A stretch of DNA of 57,047 nucleotides, from the IMG/VR virus record IMGVR_UViG_3300028887_000082; one strand, 5' to 3'. The notes under the pieces were generated by a model. The model did not search any database. It saw only the letters and a program-made list of their open reading frames with translations, and was not told where the DNA came from. Every line of letters starts with the position of its first letter. The stretch's first letter is position 1. The position numbers were made by a program, and so were the translations under genes. This document shows, one piece after another, positions 1 to 54,742 of this stretch. The stretch comes from a virus. Lineage: Duplodnaviria; Heunggongvirae; Uroviricota; Caudoviricetes.

Positions 1-945
1 CCAAAACTTAATGAAAATCCCATACTGATTAACCAGAAGTTGTATACCACATACAAGGATTTTGAAATTCCTAACATCAATGCAATAATAGATTATGACA
101 TACTGGGAAGTGTGAGTACAGCAGAACAGAACTTGTATAGAGCATTGTCTCCAAATTATGACATAATGGAGAATACACCTGTTATAATGACAGTTTATGG
201 TGTAAAATCCACATATATAAGTAATGGTTTTGAATACTACAACACAGAGAAGTTAAACACAATATTCATACCTGTTGAGGATAAGTCAAATGTAGTTGAA
301 GTGAAATGTGTTGAAGCAGAAGATGGAGATTATTTCAAGGTTTATCCGGAAGTTGATAATGATAGTATTTCATTCTCTGATTATATATACAATGTTTCCA
401 ATGGTCGTCCTGAAGACTATATTGTTTTCTATGAACTGACATTAAGAGAATATACACCTGACAATACAACTGAGGGAATTGTCACACACAGGGAACAATA
501 CATCATAAATGCTGCAAAACATTCAAATATTGAGAATGAAAAATATAAGACCAATGAGGATGAACTTGACAGTATTATGTATTACAGACCCATAGTCATC
601 AACAGTGCTAATATTGTAGAATTTACAATAGATGTAAATCTCAATATCATCAACACCCTTGACAACACAACAATAGTAAAGAGAACATCATTGAAATATA
701 GTCCAGAGAATGGTTATAATCCTAAAAAGTATGGAAAACATATGAATAAGATTTATCTTGGTAATGTTCCTGCACAAATCAATGTATATAACAAGAAACC
801 GGATATCAACAATGATGGTGTGAAGATTGTCAATAATGGAGGATCAAGCGTCAAGATTGAAAACCATCAGCACTCTGTGATAGGATTCATTGAATGTGTG
901 AATGTGGGAGTTTCAATTGAACAGATTCCAAAAGAGAACCTATAA
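1..945 (+). CDS. hypothetical protein, 5'-truncated by window edge
   Basis: Frame of ORF 40..945 is open back to position 1; no family recognised. Confidence 0.7.
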   Translation, partial: PKLNENPILINQKLYTTYKDFEIPNINAIIDYDILGSVSTAEQNLYRALSPNYDIMENTPVIMTVYGVKSTYISNGFEYYNTEKLNTIFIPVEDKSNVVEVKCVEAEDGDYFKVYPEVDNDSISFSDYIYNVSNGRPEDYIVFYELTLREYTPDNTTEGIVTHREQYIINAAKHSNIENEKYKTNEDELDSIMYYRPIVINSANIVEFTIDVNLNIINTLDNTTIVKRTSLKYSPENGYNPKKYGKHMNKIYLGNVPAQINVYNKKPDINNDGVKIVNNGGSSVKIENHQHSVIGFIECVNVGVSIEQIPKENL

Positions 946-2971: not shown

Positions 2972-3916
2972 ATGAGAAAAATCAGTGAAATATTAAGTGA
3001 ATCTGTCTGGGGTGGAATACTTGACAGGGGTGCTGGAAATAAGATAAGAAAGGAGGATGACATCAATAATCTTGATGGTGAGGGATTATATGATTATATA
3101 AAATCCCATTATAAACTCTTTAATACTATTGATATGGCATATTTACCAGAATCAAGTAGAATTGATGTTCCTATTTTTATGCGTGGAGGTAGTAGAGGAC
3201 TATCTTTCAATTATGAAAAAAAGGTAGTGTTTACAAATTATTTTATGCCATATAGCATATCTGGTTTATTTCCAAAATTGACACATAGATTTACAGTGAA
3301 GGCAGATTCAGATGAAAACCCATCACTTTATATGATTTATCCAAAAGATGATGTTAGAATTGAAGTGACAAACAAATTCTTTATTGAAGTCATTGATTTC
3401 CTTCTGGAAAATGTTCCTGAAAATGATAGATGCATAGAAAAAATAGTTGAAGAATCAGTCTGGGGAGGTATCCTTGACAGAGGTGCTGGTGAGACCATAA
3501 GGAAAGAGAATGATGTGGATAATATGGATCCAGAAACATTCAAAGAATATTTGAAAAGATTATATAAACCTCTGAATTCATATGCCATAATAATCAATTC
3601 AAAAGGTATAATAAGTGTTCCAATTATAAAAAAAGATGTAAATTGTAGTATATGCTTCAACACTAATGTTGAAAAAAATGGTATATCTATTACAGATGAT
3701 ATTATTAATTATGTAAATGGTTTACTCAACAAATTGGAACATATTTATATGGTTGATGAAGTTGATATACAAATAAGTAAGGTTTATATAATCTCACCAA
3801 AGGATGAAAGTGATGTAACAAATTCATTTTTTATTGAAGTGGTTAATTTCCTTTTGAAGAATATACCTGATTCCTACACCAAATCACTTGAAATCATTGA
3901 CAAAAATCATAAATAA
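2972..3916 (+). CDS. two-repeat hypothetical protein, possible internal head protein
   Basis: Two ~155-aa repeats each starting ESVWGGILDRGAG..IRKE. Confidence 0.75.
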   Translation: MRKISEILSESVWGGILDRGAGNKIRKEDDINNLDGEGLYDYIKSHYKLFNTIDMAYLPESSRIDVPIFMRGGSRGLSFNYEKKVVFTNYFMPYSISGLFPKLTHRFTVKADSDENPSLYMIYPKDDVRIEVTNKFFIEVIDFLLENVPENDRCIEKIVEESVWGGILDRGAGETIRKENDVDNMDPETFKEYLKRLYKPLNSYAIIINSKGIISVPIIKKDVNCSICFNTNVEKNGISITDDIINYVNGLLNKLEHIYMVDEVDIQISKVYIISPKDESDVTNSFFIEVVNFLLKNIPDSYTKSLEIIDKNHK

Positions 3917-5271: not shown

Positions 5272-5685
5272 ATGAGTAAAGTAAAAAGACCGCAATTTTT
5301 TGCATTGTACAAGGATTTTCCAAATGGTGAAATAAAACCATATGATGTGCTTGGAGTTATTTTTGACAGGATTTTCACATCAAAGGGGACAATCAGTACC
5401 AATAATTTCTATATCTTTGATGATAAGTGGAACAGGATTCCTGTCAGAACAAAGGAGCAACTCCAGATGTTCATTGATGATTGGTTCAAATATCATTTCT
5501 GGGCAAAGTGTGAATGGGAATTTGTTGTCATAGACTGGCCATATAGGGATACAATAAAGGATTCACATCCTGTCAAGATTGATGTGTACAGTCAGCTCAA
5601 ACCCAATATACCATTCATTACTGATGTGGTATGGAATTACATTGAACCAAAACTTTCAAAACTGATAGCAAAGGAGAATGAATAA
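5272..5685 (+). CDS. hypothetical protein
   Basis: ORF directly after promoter, tightly packed with next gene. Confidence 0.75.
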   Translation: MSKVKRPQFFALYKDFPNGEIKPYDVLGVIFDRIFTSKGTISTNNFYIFDDKWNRIPVRTKEQLQMFIDDWFKYHFWAKCEWEFVVIDWPYRDTIKDSHPVKIDVYSQLKPNIPFITDVVWNYIEPKLSKLIAKENE

Positions 5686-6178
5686 ACTTTTCATTGATGA
5701 CCTCATTGATAGGTTTGGATGTGAACTGGAAACCATCTTGTGTGGTGACCAGAATATGGTGAAGTCAAAACTCATTGAGTTCGGTGATTGTGACAGGTTT
5801 CCTATGATCTGTTATGAACACACCAATGACAGTAACTTTGAGGTGGATTTGTCTGAAACCAAGTTCCTGAATGACCCCATCCATGCCGGTACCTGGATTA
5901 TGGGTATCAATGATGATGAAATTGTCTTCATCCTCAATCTCAAGAACAGGAACAACATTTCATTTGAGATTGATGTATTTGAAGTCAGGGATGAATTGAG
6001 GGGTTCAGGAATAGGATCCAATCTGATTGCTGTGGTGGAATCTGTTGCAGAGGAATACTACAAATGTATTGTGGTGAGTCCTTTTGACACAGATGCACAG
6101 AATTTCTGGGAGAAAATGGAATATGAGACAATGCATACCGGTAACCTAATAAAGAGACTTACTTATGGAGAAAGTTGA
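5678..6178 (+). CDS. GNAT-family acetyltransferase
   Basis: Acetyl-CoA motif A FEVRDELRGSGIGSNLI; FWEKMEY. Confidence 0.75.
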   Translation: MNKLFIDDLIDRFGCELETILCGDQNMVKSKLIEFGDCDRFPMICYEHTNDSNFEVDLSETKFLNDPIHAGTWIMGINDDEIVFILNLKNRNNISFEIDVFEVRDELRGSGIGSNLIAVVESVAEEYYKCIVVSPFDTDAQNFWEKMEYETMHTGNLIKRLTYGES

Positions 6179-43677: not shown

Positions 43678-43753
43678 AATATCATAGCTCAGTTGGTTAG
43701 AGCACCCACAGACTGTAATTGGGAGGTCAGAGGTTCGAGTCCCCTTGATGTTA
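43678..43753 (+). tRNA. atypical tRNA, Thr(TGT)-like with enlarged anticodon loop
   Basis: Normal acceptor, D and T arms; anticodon arm CCCA-CAGACTGTAAT-TGGG. Confidence 0.6.
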
Positions 43754-44110: not shown

Positions 44111-44184
44111 TGGGATGTAGCTATAATGGTTAGAGCAACTGGCCGTTAACCAGAAGGTTGCAGGTTCGAGTCCTGTCATCCCAG
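44111..44184 (+). tRNA. trnN: tRNA-Asn(GTT), C33 variant
   Basis: CTGG-CC GTT AA-CCAG; G73. Confidence 0.88.
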
Positions 44185-44192
44185 CAAAAGAT

Positions 44193-46551: not shown

Positions 46552-47334
46552 ATGATTGTCGAACAAATGGATAAACCCAAGTATCATTATTTCTATAAAA
46601 TAACAAATAGACTCAATGGACATTATTATTATGGTGTTCATTCAACATATAATCTTGATGATGGATATATGGGGTCTGGAAAAAGATTACATATTGCTTA
46701 TAAGAAATATGGTATAGAATGTTTTGAAAAGGAAATTTTAAAATTTTTCAATACCAGAAAAGAATGTGAGGAATATGAAGAATCAGTTGTTAATGAAATA
46801 TTGATTGGTGATGACAATTGTTATAATTGTGTACCTGGTGGAGGAACTTTAAAAACTCCAGGAAAAGCATGCTTCATTGATGAAAATGGTAATATTATAC
46901 AAGTAACCACAGAAGATGCACATAAGAGAGGATTAAGAGGTAATGCAGTGGGTACAACATTAGTAATTGTTGATGGTGAATATGTTATGGCTGATGTTGA
47001 TAAACTTAATGATTATGATTCATTTAAGTATCCTATGAGTGGAAAAATAACAGTATATGACAAAAATAATAACCATTATGTTGTAAGTTGTGATGATAAA
47101 AGATATATTTCTGGAGAATTAAGACCATTCTGGTCAGGTAAAAAACTTTCAGAGGAAACAAAAACAAAAATTAAAACATCACTATCACTAATACATCATC
47201 AACAAGGTGAAAAAAATTCTCAATATGGAACTTGTTGGATTACTAAAAATAATGAAAACAAGAAAATTAAAAAAGAGAATTTAGAAACATATCTTAATGA
47301 TGGTTGGGTTAAAGGAAGATTTATAAAACACTAA
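46552..47334 (+). mobile_element. free-standing GIY-YIG (Seg-like) homing endonuclease
   Basis: YFYKITN...YYYGVH...GYMGSG; NUMOD3-like KKLSEETKTKI; AT-richer than neighbours. Confidence 0.8.
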
Positions 47335-47352
47335 ATGTGTTAATGATATATA

Positions 47353-47662
47353 GGTCTTGTTGATACTTTCAGGAAAAACTGTAGGACACGGGTTCGAGTC
47401 CCGCTACCTCCACAAATTTATATTTTTTATATGGGGGTATATTGGTTTTGACTGCTTTTAAGTATGGGAAGAGGAGAGGTCTATCGCCAATAACTGGCAA
47501 AAACAACAATTTCTCTGTAAACTTTGGCCCTGTTGCACAAACAGCTGCTCCAAAGGCTATGATGGCTGCCGCTTAATCGTGGTTTCCCTGATTAGTAAGT
47601 ACACTGGCCAGGCTGGTGTCACAGAAGGTTCTATCCATCTTGTCCAAAAAGATGGATCTTTT
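47353..47662 (+). ncRNA. ssrA: circularly permuted two-piece tmRNA
   Basis: T arm plus 3' acceptor TACCTCC-A (47405-47412) precedes 5' acceptor GGGGGTA (47433); G3:U70; ATAACT|GGC resume; tag 47496-47576 GKNNNFSVNFGPVAQTAAPKAMMAAA*. Confidence 0.88.
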
Positions 47663-47683
47663 GAAAGTTCTTTAAAATATTAT

Positions 47684-47787
47684 ATGGGTGGATTGTATGC
47701 AGTTCTTGATAAGTCTGTATCAGTACTTGCAGATACTGTCTTGAATTAAAGTAAAGAATAGGATCCTGATTACAATAAGTTCCCACC
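47684..47787 (+). ncRNA. candidate ~105-nt structured RNA
   Basis: GGGTGG/CCACCC closure; TCTGTA/TGCAGA hairpin. Confidence 0.35.
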
Positions 47788-47824
47788 CGCCCTTACAGTT
47801 ATGGTTAATCTGTGAAAACCAAAT

Positions 47825-48017
47825 GGGTCAATAGCTCAATGGTAGAGCAGCGGACTGTATAAGGAGTGGTTTACCGGAACAAACCAACCTGGTATGGTCG
47901 AGTGGTCAAAGACGTAGGTTTAGAAAACCGGAGTAAGTTAAAAACTTGCAGACGTTGGTTCAAATCCAACTATCAGGTCTAATCCGCAGGTTGTAGGTTC
48001 GAGCCCTACTTGGCCCG
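47825..48017 (+). tRNA. trnN: interrupted tRNA-Asn(GTT): exons 47825-47858 and 47980-48017
   Basis: Joined exons give a 72-nt cloverleaf with GCGGA-CT GT|T AA-TCCGC, short variable loop and G73. Confidence 0.8.
47888..47978 (+). tRNA. nested type-II tRNA-Ser(AGA)-like gene inside the tRNA-Asn anticodon
   Basis: CCTGGTA/TATCAGG acceptor, TGGTCGAGTGGTCAAAGAC D arm, TT AGA AA loop, long variable hairpin, GTTGG-TTCAAAT-CCAAC. Confidence 0.7.
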
Positions 48018-48021
48018 CAAA

Positions 48022-48109
48022 GTACATAGGAAGTCCTGGTCGTGGTGCACGCTTATGTTAGGTTCGGGTTTGATCAACCCACAGAGGTTCGAGTCCTCTC
48101 TATGTACCA
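48022..48109 (+). ncRNA. tRNA-like RNA with non-canonical D/anticodon region
   Basis: 8-bp acceptor GTACATAG/CTATGTAC, AGAGG-TTCGAGT-CCTCT, GGGTT/AACCC arm. Confidence 0.6.
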
Positions 48110-48126
48110 AATAATAAATATAATAT

Positions 48127-48217
48127 GGAGGAGTGGCAGAGTGGTTTATTGCAGAGGTCTTGAAAACCTCCGGGCGTGTTGAGCGCCCCGTCGGTTCGAA
48201 TCCGGCCTCCTCCGCCA
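48127..48217 (+). tRNA. trnS: tRNA-Ser(TGA)
   Basis: GAGGT-CT TGA AA-ACCTC, long variable arm, G73, CCA encoded. Confidence 0.93.
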
Positions 48218-48398
48218 GTATAACAAATTCCAAAAGTTTGTTATATTTATTAAGGTTTTGTTATGTGTTTGTTTTAAGTTAAAGGTTCTAACCGCAACAA
48301 TTACAAAAAAGATGCTGTTCACATTTTCCAAATGAACCTTGTTTTGTTTCAAACACACAACTTCAAACCAAATAAACATTTAAATTAATTAAAAAAGT

Positions 48399-49040
48399 AT
48401 GAAGAAATTTTTGGCGTTTCTTATGAGCCTTGTGCTCATTTTCGGTTTGAGTTCATGTAACTCTTGCACAAGAAACCAGACTACTCCTACTGAAGAGACC
48501 ACACCGGCAGTTGCTGAGTTGGTTGTTGAGAATGTAATCTCTACTGACCGTCAGGCAATGTACCTTGCACATGGTGGTGACTACAGATGGTATGAGACTG
48601 GTGTTCAACTCAAGGACTGGCTTGATGAAGAGAATGATGGTACTATCGATATGGTAGTTAATGTTTTCCAGGTAATTGAGGAGTATGATTCAACAAGTTT
48701 TGATACCTATGTTTACAAGTATCAGCATTTTTCAGATGGTACTGTAAATGAAGATGGTGTTCATGGTTTCTGGGTTGAGGATTATCCTCTTGAACAGGAA
48801 GTAATTAAGGTAACATTCAAGGAAGCTTACCAGAAGATCCAGGAAGTTAATCTCCCAAGACCTCATTCACGTCAGGTTGTATTGAGAAAGCCTATCGGTC
48901 CTAAGGATTGCAATCCACAGTGGATATTTGGTAATCTCCATGAGCAGATTTGGGTTGATGCAGTTACAGGTGAAGTTACTAACAGTAACCCTGCATTTGA
49001 TGGTCTGAATCTCGGTACTCCACTTGGTGAGTGGCCCTAA
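48399..49040 (+). CDS. putative lipoprotein
   Basis: Signal MKKFLAFLMSLVLIFGLSSC. Confidence 0.8.
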   Translation: MKKFLAFLMSLVLIFGLSSCNSCTRNQTTPTEETTPAVAELVVENVISTDRQAMYLAHGGDYRWYETGVQLKDWLDEENDGTIDMVVNVFQVIEEYDSTSFDTYVYKYQHFSDGTVNEDGVHGFWVEDYPLEQEVIKVTFKEAYQKIQEVNLPRPHSRQVVLRKPIGPKDCNPQWIFGNLHEQIWVDAVTGEVTNSNPAFDGLNLGTPLGEWP

Positions 49041-54645: not shown

Positions 54646-54732
54646 AGGTCGGTGGCCGAGTGGTCGAAGGCAGCGGTCTCCAAAACCGCCAAGATGGTAA
54701 CATCTTCGAGGGTTCGAATCCTTCCCGGCCTG
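54646..54732 (+). tRNA. trnW: tRNA(CCA), nominally Trp, with type-II long variable arm
   Basis: GCGGT-CT CCA AA-ACCGC; AAGATG-GTAA-CATCTT variable hairpin; G73. Confidence 0.82.
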
Positions 54733-54742
54733 CTTGAGGAAT

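Follow-up and report, generated by a model that had tools for sequence, protein, structure and literature searches.

To our knowledge, the tRNA introns of bacteria and their viruses are regarded as exclusively self-splicing. Group I introns have a conserved P3-P9 catalytic core, typically at least about 200 nt in size; a U precedes their 5' splice site, and their last base is a G. Elsewhere, a tRNA shape embedded in a longer transcript serves to recruit RNase P and RNase Z, as in mascRNA at the 3' end of MALAT1, the t-elements of plant mitochondria, and mitochondrial tRNA punctuation. The closest described systems to the locus analyzed here are the 'enigmatic' tRNA introns of the Lak megaphages (Devoto et al. 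[quoted passage not shown] Literature searches found no published splicing mechanism for this family, nor a demonstrated removal from RNA. The original prediction had taken the layout of a tRNA nested in the anticodon loop of another tRNA as new; it has been known since 2019 for Lak phages, and the tRNA-Asn intron described here is a further case. What is added is an explicit boundary rule, a link to ordinary tRNA 3' ends, the proposed reassignment of one Lak gene to Asn, and one exact joint in an RNA library.

The window, that is, the whole stretch of 57,047 nucleotides that was analyzed, corresponds to bases 24250-81296 of a 153.6-kb IMG/VR phage record (G000) that is estimated to be 64% complete and holds 42 tRNA genes and a permuted tmRNA, as found with ARAGORN and Rfam. 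Like the Lak phages, it belongs with the huge phages of animal-gut Bacteroidales, and its best DNA match among public runs is a bovine gut metagenome, in all probability the sample that it came from; because the phage carries a tmRNA, its host is bacterial. Its lineage has a genome of about 240 kb, 38% GC, and ORFs that are open under code 11, whereas Lak genomes are 540 kb, 26% GC, and use code 15. Asn codons make up 6.7% of the codons in long ORFs, and Seg-like GIY-YIG homing endonuclease genes lie within the tRNA array. The features of the locus are as follows (window coordinates unless stated otherwise).

46552-47334, and 3378-3905 of the related contig L140: homing endonuclease genes (GIY-YIG and HNH, respectively) near the nested gene
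47321-47667: circularly permuted (two-piece) tmRNA gene (ARAGORN; Rfam RF04321, 56.4 bits)
47825-47858, plus strand: 5' exon of tRNA-Asn(GUU), comprising the 5' strand of the acceptor stem, the D arm, the 5' strand of the anticodon stem, and C32 U33 G34 U35
47859-47979, plus strand: intron of 121 nt between anticodon positions 35 and 36
47859-47886, plus strand: 5' module of the intron, 28 nt, AUAAGGAG followed by the hairpin TGGTTT (47867-47872)/AAACCA (47881-47886) with the loop ACCGGAAC
47887-47978, plus strand: tRNA-like module, a complete type-II cloverleaf, Ser-AGA-like, with its anticodon at 47922-47924
47979, plus strand: single unpaired C, the last base of the intron, with the 3' splice site next to it
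47980-48017, plus strand: 3' exon of tRNA-Asn(GUU), comprising U36 A37 A38, the 3' strand of the anticodon stem, a 5-nt variable loop, the T arm, the 3' strand of the acceptor stem, and G73

The tmRNA gene upstream of the nested tRNA-Asn is also kept in the related contigs L004 and L140.

The outer gene is divided into a 5' half, GGGTCAA-TA-GCTC-AATGGTA-GAGC-A-GCGGA-CTGT (47825-47858), and a 3' half, TAA-TCCGC-AGGTT-GTAGG-TTCGAGC-CCTAC-TTGGCCC-G (47980-48017), which is followed by C48018 and then by AAAG. Joined, the two exons form a canonical 72-nt tRNA with a 7-bp acceptor stem, a GCGGA/TCCGC anticodon stem, the anticodon loop CTGT+TAA, a 5-nt variable loop, and G73. ARAGORN scored the joint CTGT^TAA (the caret marks a splice site here and below) as tRNA-Asn(gtt) at 121.2, among the top scores in the genome, and with introns allowed it called 47825-48018 with a 121-nt intron. 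In a chance control, 4 of 6000 random deletions of 121 nt in the window gave a tRNA call spanning the junction; one of these was the nested locus itself at an offset of 4 nt, and three joined neighboring tRNAs of the array into fusions with low scores. For other junctions ARAGORN called the outer tRNA as Tyr(GUA) or Arg(UCU); both identities were rejected, given that the variable loop is short, that G73 and U20 are present, that an RNA-library contig shows the exact joint, and that the boundary rule holds across the family. The view that the insert is discrete and intron-like, and that the tRNA-Asn(GUU) gene around it is otherwise intact, is supported, and the coordinates originally proposed for the two halves and the insert proved exact to the base.

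Evidence for the joint comes from Logan contigs of four metatranscriptome runs, which were mapped on positions 47250-48450. One contig of run X22 (238 nt, depth 2.9) matches 47761-47858 and then 47980-48016 without a mismatch, giving 98 and 37 bases on the two sides of an unambiguous joint that omits exactly 47859-47979. The junction is therefore fixed as CUGU^UAA, which specifies Asn and not Tyr or Arg; this joint (47858^47980) and the boundary rule both lead to CTGT^TAA, and the preference for Asn over Tyr(GTA) that had been based on the variable loop and G73 was correct. Its sequence upstream of 47761 departs from that of the window, and it must therefore come from a related strain. On account of this divergence, and of the intron-less alleles described for Lak (Devoto et al. 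2019), the contig may represent an allele that lacks the intron, or DNA carry-over in the library, instead of spliced RNA. We take it as proof of a discrete insert with these borders and as no more than a hint of splicing. In a contig of run X5, AUAAGG and a hairpin of another sequence, ACACA-ACCGTAA-TGTGT, come after the 5' exon; this is a further variant of the intron, whose presence in an RNA library is consistent with transcription of the precursor or with DNA carry-over. The contigs of runs X5, X6, and X18 cover only pieces of the locus and come from relatives or other organisms, and no weight attaches to the uncovered parts.

Within the intron, the linker hairpin and the Ser(AGA)-like type-II cloverleaf that had been seen at first were both confirmed, the cloverleaf with ARAGORN and Rfam. 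The inner element (47888-47978/9) scores 115.5 as tRNA-Ser(aga) in ARAGORN and 45.8 bits against RF00005 (gathering score 29), and it consists of an acceptor helix (47888-47894/47971-47977), a T arm (GTTGG-TTCAAAT-CCAAC), a 7-bp variable arm, and an anticodon stem with one A.G mismatch. The description can be refined by one pair; because A47887 pairs with T47978, the inner acceptor helix is readable as 8 bp, followed by the unpaired C47979. A cmscan of the insert against Rfam at E<=10 returned tRNA only, for the inner part. As to the 5' module, the sequence AUAAGG and the hairpin loop CCGNAA are kept in all Asn introns and the intervening stem covaries; the GG(N) of AUAAGG could pair with the (N)CC of the loop, over 3 bp in L141 and the X5 variant and over 2 bp in the window. 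An alternative helix of GACUGUAU with GUAUGGUC, seen in minimum-free-energy folds of the window, L004, and L140, was dropped because it is not conserved in L141.

The introns of the Lak Phe, Thr, Gly, and 'Tyr(GTA)' genes (Table S6, PMC6784885), parsed by eye, have the same build as the Asn intron, and like it they are anticodon-loop inserts of 79-121 nt without an Rfam match. This build runs from the exon through ^WUA, a hairpin of 4-5 bp whose loop is A-rich, a spacer likewise rich in A, and a tRNA-like module to one C^ and the exon beginning (U)AA. It recurs in the tRNA-Thr intron of the window genome (G000:85369-85523) and in the tRNA-Leu(UAA) intron of L004. A helix followed by one C and the exon is present in 6/6 of the tRNA-like introns parsed (in Asn, Thr, and Leu genes) and, by eye, in four Lak introns as well; every parsed member of the family has an 8-bp terminal helix, each with a different sequence. 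The 5' module of the Lak Phe intron, TTAACAGAGTAAACTGT, nearly matches that of the L004 Leu intron, TTAGCAGAGTAAACTGT. One difference lies in the tRNA-like module, which in Lak is a helix of 7-9 bp plus a T arm (Table S6, by eye), whereas in the window its place is taken by a full Ser-like cloverleaf of type II that includes an anticodon arm. In its build the window intron otherwise agrees with the Lak type: it sits in the anticodon loop, its exact removal leaves a canonical tRNA, it opens with WUA and a hairpin, and it closes with a helix and an unpaired C.

The comparison also yields the boundary rule. The splice site lies between positions 35 and 36 in Asn and between 36 and 37 in Thr, Leu, Phe, and Gly, and always directly before WUA and the hairpin. 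Because the site shifts on the tRNA and keeps its place before the WUA/hairpin, it is set by the intron and not by the tRNA. A Lak intron at the equivalent site was annotated as a canonical 37/38 intron of Tyr(GTA) (Devoto et al. 2019, PMC6784885); the gene reads ...AGAGA-CTGT^ATA...GTAG-C^TAA-TCTCT and has a short variable loop. Judged by the boundary rule and the X22 joint, this 'Tyr' gene would be an Asn(GTT) gene with its site at 35/36 and the counterpart of the window gene, a reassignment that is unpublished. A different kind of small insert is found in a tRNA-Arg(UCU) gene of contig L020 (L020:3868-4022; G001:250751-250905), where 82 nt in the anticodon loop contain no T loop and carry the direct repeat TTATCCAC.

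The search for the nested layout elsewhere that the original prediction had proposed found it in the tRNA-Asn genes of four other contigs, from other metagenomes: L004, and L140, L141, and L142, which were found by scanning JGI metagenome contigs for the 5' junction. Misassembly, the artifact that the prediction had named as a danger to it, is excluded because the layout recurs in five independent contigs. In the GenBank phage collection neither the Asn pre-tRNA nor the pre-tRNA of the tRNA-Thr gene in G000 had a match, and scans of IMG/VR for the linker and for the 5' junction found the L004 contig only. An intron-less allele with these exact exons was not found in IMG/VR, and a scan for the uninterrupted sequence GCAGCGGACTGTTAATCCGC returned at least 119 ordinary phage tRNA-Asn genes, none with the flanks of the nested gene. 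A scan of genome contigs with a 15-mer, a probe too short for the purpose, gave at least 120 matches, essentially all by chance, and no split tRNA-Asn was among the matches listed.

The relative L004 (genome G001, 345 kb) has a neighboring protein 74% identical to that of the window, and its copy of the layout likewise lies downstream of its own tmRNA gene; its outer tRNA scores 48.6 bits with Infernal across the insert. Between the window and L004, five of the seven pairs of the outer acceptor stem differ and all still pair, and one T-stem pair has changed from A-U to G-C. Such compensatory changes in the outer halves argue against a dead gene or insertion scar, in which a mobile tRNA-like DNA, possibly moved by the homing endonucleases of the array, would have inactivated the tRNA-Asn and left the outer halves to decay. 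Some decay might be read from the U-U mismatch in the outer T stem of L004, and from another in the acceptor stem of L141, which also has U73; GIY-YIG and HNH homing endonuclease genes are close by, and intron-less Lak alleles are known (Devoto et al. 2019, PMC6784885). The nested gene has no consistent homing endonuclease partner, with a GIY-YIG gene in the window, an HNH gene in L140, and none recognized adjoining the gene in L004. A scar would also be tolerable where another tRNA-Asn exists, and the window copy is dispensable in principle because G000 has a second one (44111-44185); in G001, which is 94% complete, the interrupted gene is however the sole tRNA-Asn among about 40 tRNA genes, all in one array. 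Since, moreover, the outer helices pair through six double-sided changes, phages as far removed as Lak have kept the site and the build, and the joined form is present in an RNA library, a scar is unlikely, and the outer halves, maintained in relatives, speak against the original suggestion of one.

What is conserved inside the outer gene differs from part to part. The 5' module is the best-conserved part among Asn introns, with 28/29 nt identical between the window and both L004 and L142; in L141 its stem is replaced by GAATTCA/TGAATTC and the loop retains CCGAAA. The inner module varies: it is of type II and 92 nt long in the window, lacks an anticodon arm and measures about 68 nt in L004 and L140, and takes another form in L141. 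All Asn introns nonetheless retain a terminal helix of 8-9 bp, the T loop GTTCRANYC, and the single final C, with helix sequences that differ. Given such widely differing inner modules, it is the outer tRNA and the shape of the intron that are conserved, and not a decoding inner tRNA.

Several other tRNA genes of these arrays are unusual. U33 is nearly universal in tRNAs; the second tRNA-Asn(GTT) of the window (44111-44185), which is uninterrupted, has the anticodon loop CCGTTAA with C33 in its place, and it has the second-lowest ARAGORN score (104.9). At 43678-43753 there is an Rfam tRNA match of 46.4 bits that ARAGORN did not call, with an irregular anticodon region, CCCAC-AGACTGTAAT-TGGG. 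A tRNA with the anticodon CCA (Trp) at 54646-54733 has a long variable arm and a length of 88 nt (92 nt in L004:11406-11497), and among five long phage tRNAs compared it is the closest to the inner Ser-like element (59/91). In L142, a tRNA with the anticodon CTA, an amber suppressor (840-913, minus strand), suggests that TAG is recoded in that phage, a relative that shares the Asn intron. Directly 3' of the nested gene, at 48022-48108, lies a tRNA-like RNA that is 82% identical in L004 (5421-5507); its acceptor helix, GTACATAG/CTATGTAC, has 8 bp and precedes CA, its T arm reads AGAGG-TTCGAGT-CCTCT, and GGGT-TTGATCA-ACCC forms a hairpin within it. This RNA receives no ARAGORN call and belongs to no Rfam family, and is alike in position to the stable RNAs C and D of T4.

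The presence of another non-decoding tRNA-like RNA at 48022-48108 lends some color to the idea that the nested gene, too, acts as a composite RNA of 193 nt that is never spliced, for example by engaging anticodon nucleases or tRNA-binding defense proteins as a decoy or sponge, or by shielding the inner tRNA as a scaffold, and phage tRNA arrays are known counter-defense tools. A composite RNA would leave the joined form in the RNA library unexplained, and it would not account for the constant placement of the insert, whose precise excision always leaves an anticodon loop of 7 nt and the right anticodon, in tRNAs of six kinds (Asn, Thr, Leu, Phe, and Gly, and Arg in L020). We consider such a role highly improbable; both the scar and the scaffold of the original prediction are unlikely.

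One question regarding an intron in this place is whether it belongs to one of the classes known from tRNA genes. The original statement that it is not a group I intron holds, as a search of 47700-48300 with RF00028 gave no match at E<=10, and the same search does match a tRNA-Ser gene of L004. The intron shares with group I introns, such as those of tRNA-Leu(UAA) and of the L004 tRNA-Ser(UGA), a location in the anticodon loop, a U before the 5' splice site, and mobility, with homing endonucleases nearby. Unlike them, it is too small at 121 nt for a P3-P9 core, its last base is C47979 and not G, and a tRNA shape stands in the place of the ribozyme core. The L004 tRNA-Ser(UGA) gene (5543-5812) is interrupted after U34 by about 200 nt that score 42.9 bits with the Rfam group I model (E 3e-9; short of the gathering score, 50), and its orthologues are uninterrupted in the window (tRNA-Ser(TGA), 48127-48217) and in L140. 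The bulge-helix-bulge (BHB) introns of archaea and eukaryotes offer a likeness in some respects, as these are also small, lie in the anticodon loop, need an endonuclease and a ligase, and have their exon ends held by the tRNA body. In contrast to BHB introns, which depend on EndA or TSEN and on RtcB or Trl1, the present intron has a bacterial host and a position (35/36 or 36/37) set by the intron. By inspection there is no 4-bp complement between 47857-47866 and 47970-47981 that could form a bulge-helix-bulge, and neither EndA (PF01974, with a control in which only archaea matched) nor RtcB was found in G000 or G001. Group I, BHB, and known small ribozyme introns find no support in the Rfam and PF01974 results.

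An unrecognized small ribozyme, self-cleaving or self-splicing, is a different matter, in which AUAAGG and the hairpin with the CCGNAA loop would form a core that cuts the 5' site, with joining by RtcB or by reversal of the cleavage. The strong conservation of the 5' module between the window and L004 could be taken in its favor, as could the failure of RNase P to explain the 5' site and the presence of RtcB in a Bacteroides control genome. Across tRNA species, however, WUA, a generic hairpin, and the tRNA shape are all that the introns have in common, with no sequence core; no Rfam ribozyme family matched at E<=10, and the intron ends in C instead of the group I G. A ribozyme of this kind is accordingly judged very unlikely.

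The explanation that we hold to be the probable one, with some reserve, is that 47859-47979 is a protein-processed intron of the Lak-megaphage type, lying between positions 35 and 36 of a working tRNA-Asn(GUU) gene. The 3' ends of ordinary tRNA genes point to how its 3' splice site might arise. All 42 ordinary tRNA genes of the phage (42/42) end in N73-C74 followed by an A/T-rich trailer, and 6/42 end in C^TAA; because the junction of the inner element with the 3' exon reads U-C^UAA, the exon occupies the place of an ordinary trailer, and by this match the 3' splice site would be the work of the ordinary tRNA 3'-end enzyme. A full CCA is encoded by only 6/42 of the tRNA genes, the rest continuing A/T-rich (mostly AAA, TAA, or ACA). 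RNase Z cleaves 3' of the first unpaired base at the acceptor end, and its downstream product carries a 5' phosphate. For the 5' splice site RNase P is excluded, because 28-35 nt separate the site from the inner +1 in all members of the family; a second endonuclease and a ligase are needed. RNase E has the core recognition sequence RN^WU, which is fitted by 9/10 of the parsed 5' junctions (GU^AU, AA^UU, and GU^UU) and not by CC^AU of Lak Gly, and the Bacteroides control genome has an RNase E/G homologue.

We infer every step of the following pathway, from folding through cleavage to ligation. The body of the outer tRNA would fold first and keep the exon ends together in the anticodon loop. The inner module would then fold into a tRNA-like shape, upon which an RNase Z-type nuclease of host or phage would cut 3' of the unpaired C and free the 3' exon with a 5' phosphate; RNase P would probably cut at the inner +1. 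A second endonuclease, for which RNase E/G is a candidate, would recognize the single-stranded WUA beside the hairpin and cut 3' of U35. Hydrolytic cuts at both sites would leave a 3'-OH and a 5'-P in the anticodon loop, a substrate for an ATP-dependent ligase, and an RNA ligase that joins such ends, the candidates being the Rnl2-family enzymes of the phage, would seal CUGU^UAA.

The window phage has two Rnl2-family ligases (G000:151307-151990 and 115194-115871), and G001 has an NgrRnl-like ligase; the Rnl1 profile (PF09511) found no match in phage DNA, and its control was likewise without a match. The proposed last step resembles tRNA repair by T4, in which Pnkp and Rnl1 act after the PrrC cut and a phage ligase seals a broken anticodon loop, and it differs from it in that T4 mends damage and splices no intron, and in that only Rnl2-family ligases were found in the window phage. 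It also sets the intron apart from mascRNA, t-elements, and tRNA punctuation, which are only cut, whereas the flanks of the Asn intron must then be ligated. Rnl2-type ligases prefer nicks in duplex RNA to anticodon loops, and this counts against the route, as do an RNA support of one contig at 2.9x depth and a 5' cutter that is only a candidate. With respect to the original prediction of excision by tRNA-processing nucleases and joining by a phage ligase, the intron found support, the phage ligases found are of the Rnl2 family, and RNase P and RNase Z alone fail at the 5' site; the attached idea that the Asn anticodon is hidden until needed did not find support. This reading of an intron removed by nucleases and a ligase is the best supported of those put forward at the outset, incomplete at the 5' site and unproven.

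A further step would be a two-for-one gene, in which the same end-processing cuts release a working tRNA-Ser (AGA, probably read as IGA) and create the splice sites of the tRNA-Asn. The inner element scores like ordinary phage tRNAs, and its 3' context (U73-C74^UAA) matches theirs; the phage uses other tRNAs with A34 (Leu-AAG and Arg-ACG), and it has no tRNA-Ser(GGA), with UCU and UCC together at 18 per 1000 codons. Against decoding stand the A.G mismatch of the anticodon stem and the homologous L004 and L140 modules, which have no anticodon arm. Serine identity in E. coli rests on G73, G1-C72, and G2-C71, unlike the U73 (or C), C1-G72, and C2-G71 of the inner element. Decoding by the inner tRNA is, on balance, doubtful; if true, one nested gene would give two decoding tRNAs, by a third tRNA-splicing route besides the ribozyme and the BHB endonuclease.

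The usual programs for finding tRNAs either overlook the outer gene or label it Tyr or Arg, and huge phages are therefore credited with fewer tRNAs than they have. The locus is a convenient test case for the family, as both of its splice sites are exact to the base, its 5' module of 28 nt shows RNase P and RNase Z by themselves to be insufficient, the natural variants (window, L004/L140, and L141) are ready compensatory mutants, and the inner module is a full tRNA whose maturation can be traced. The introns of the family are too small for any known ribozyme class, and many huge phages appear to maintain them in essential tRNAs. If these introns are spliced, tRNA end-processing nucleases together with a ligase would constitute a third, undescribed route of tRNA splicing.
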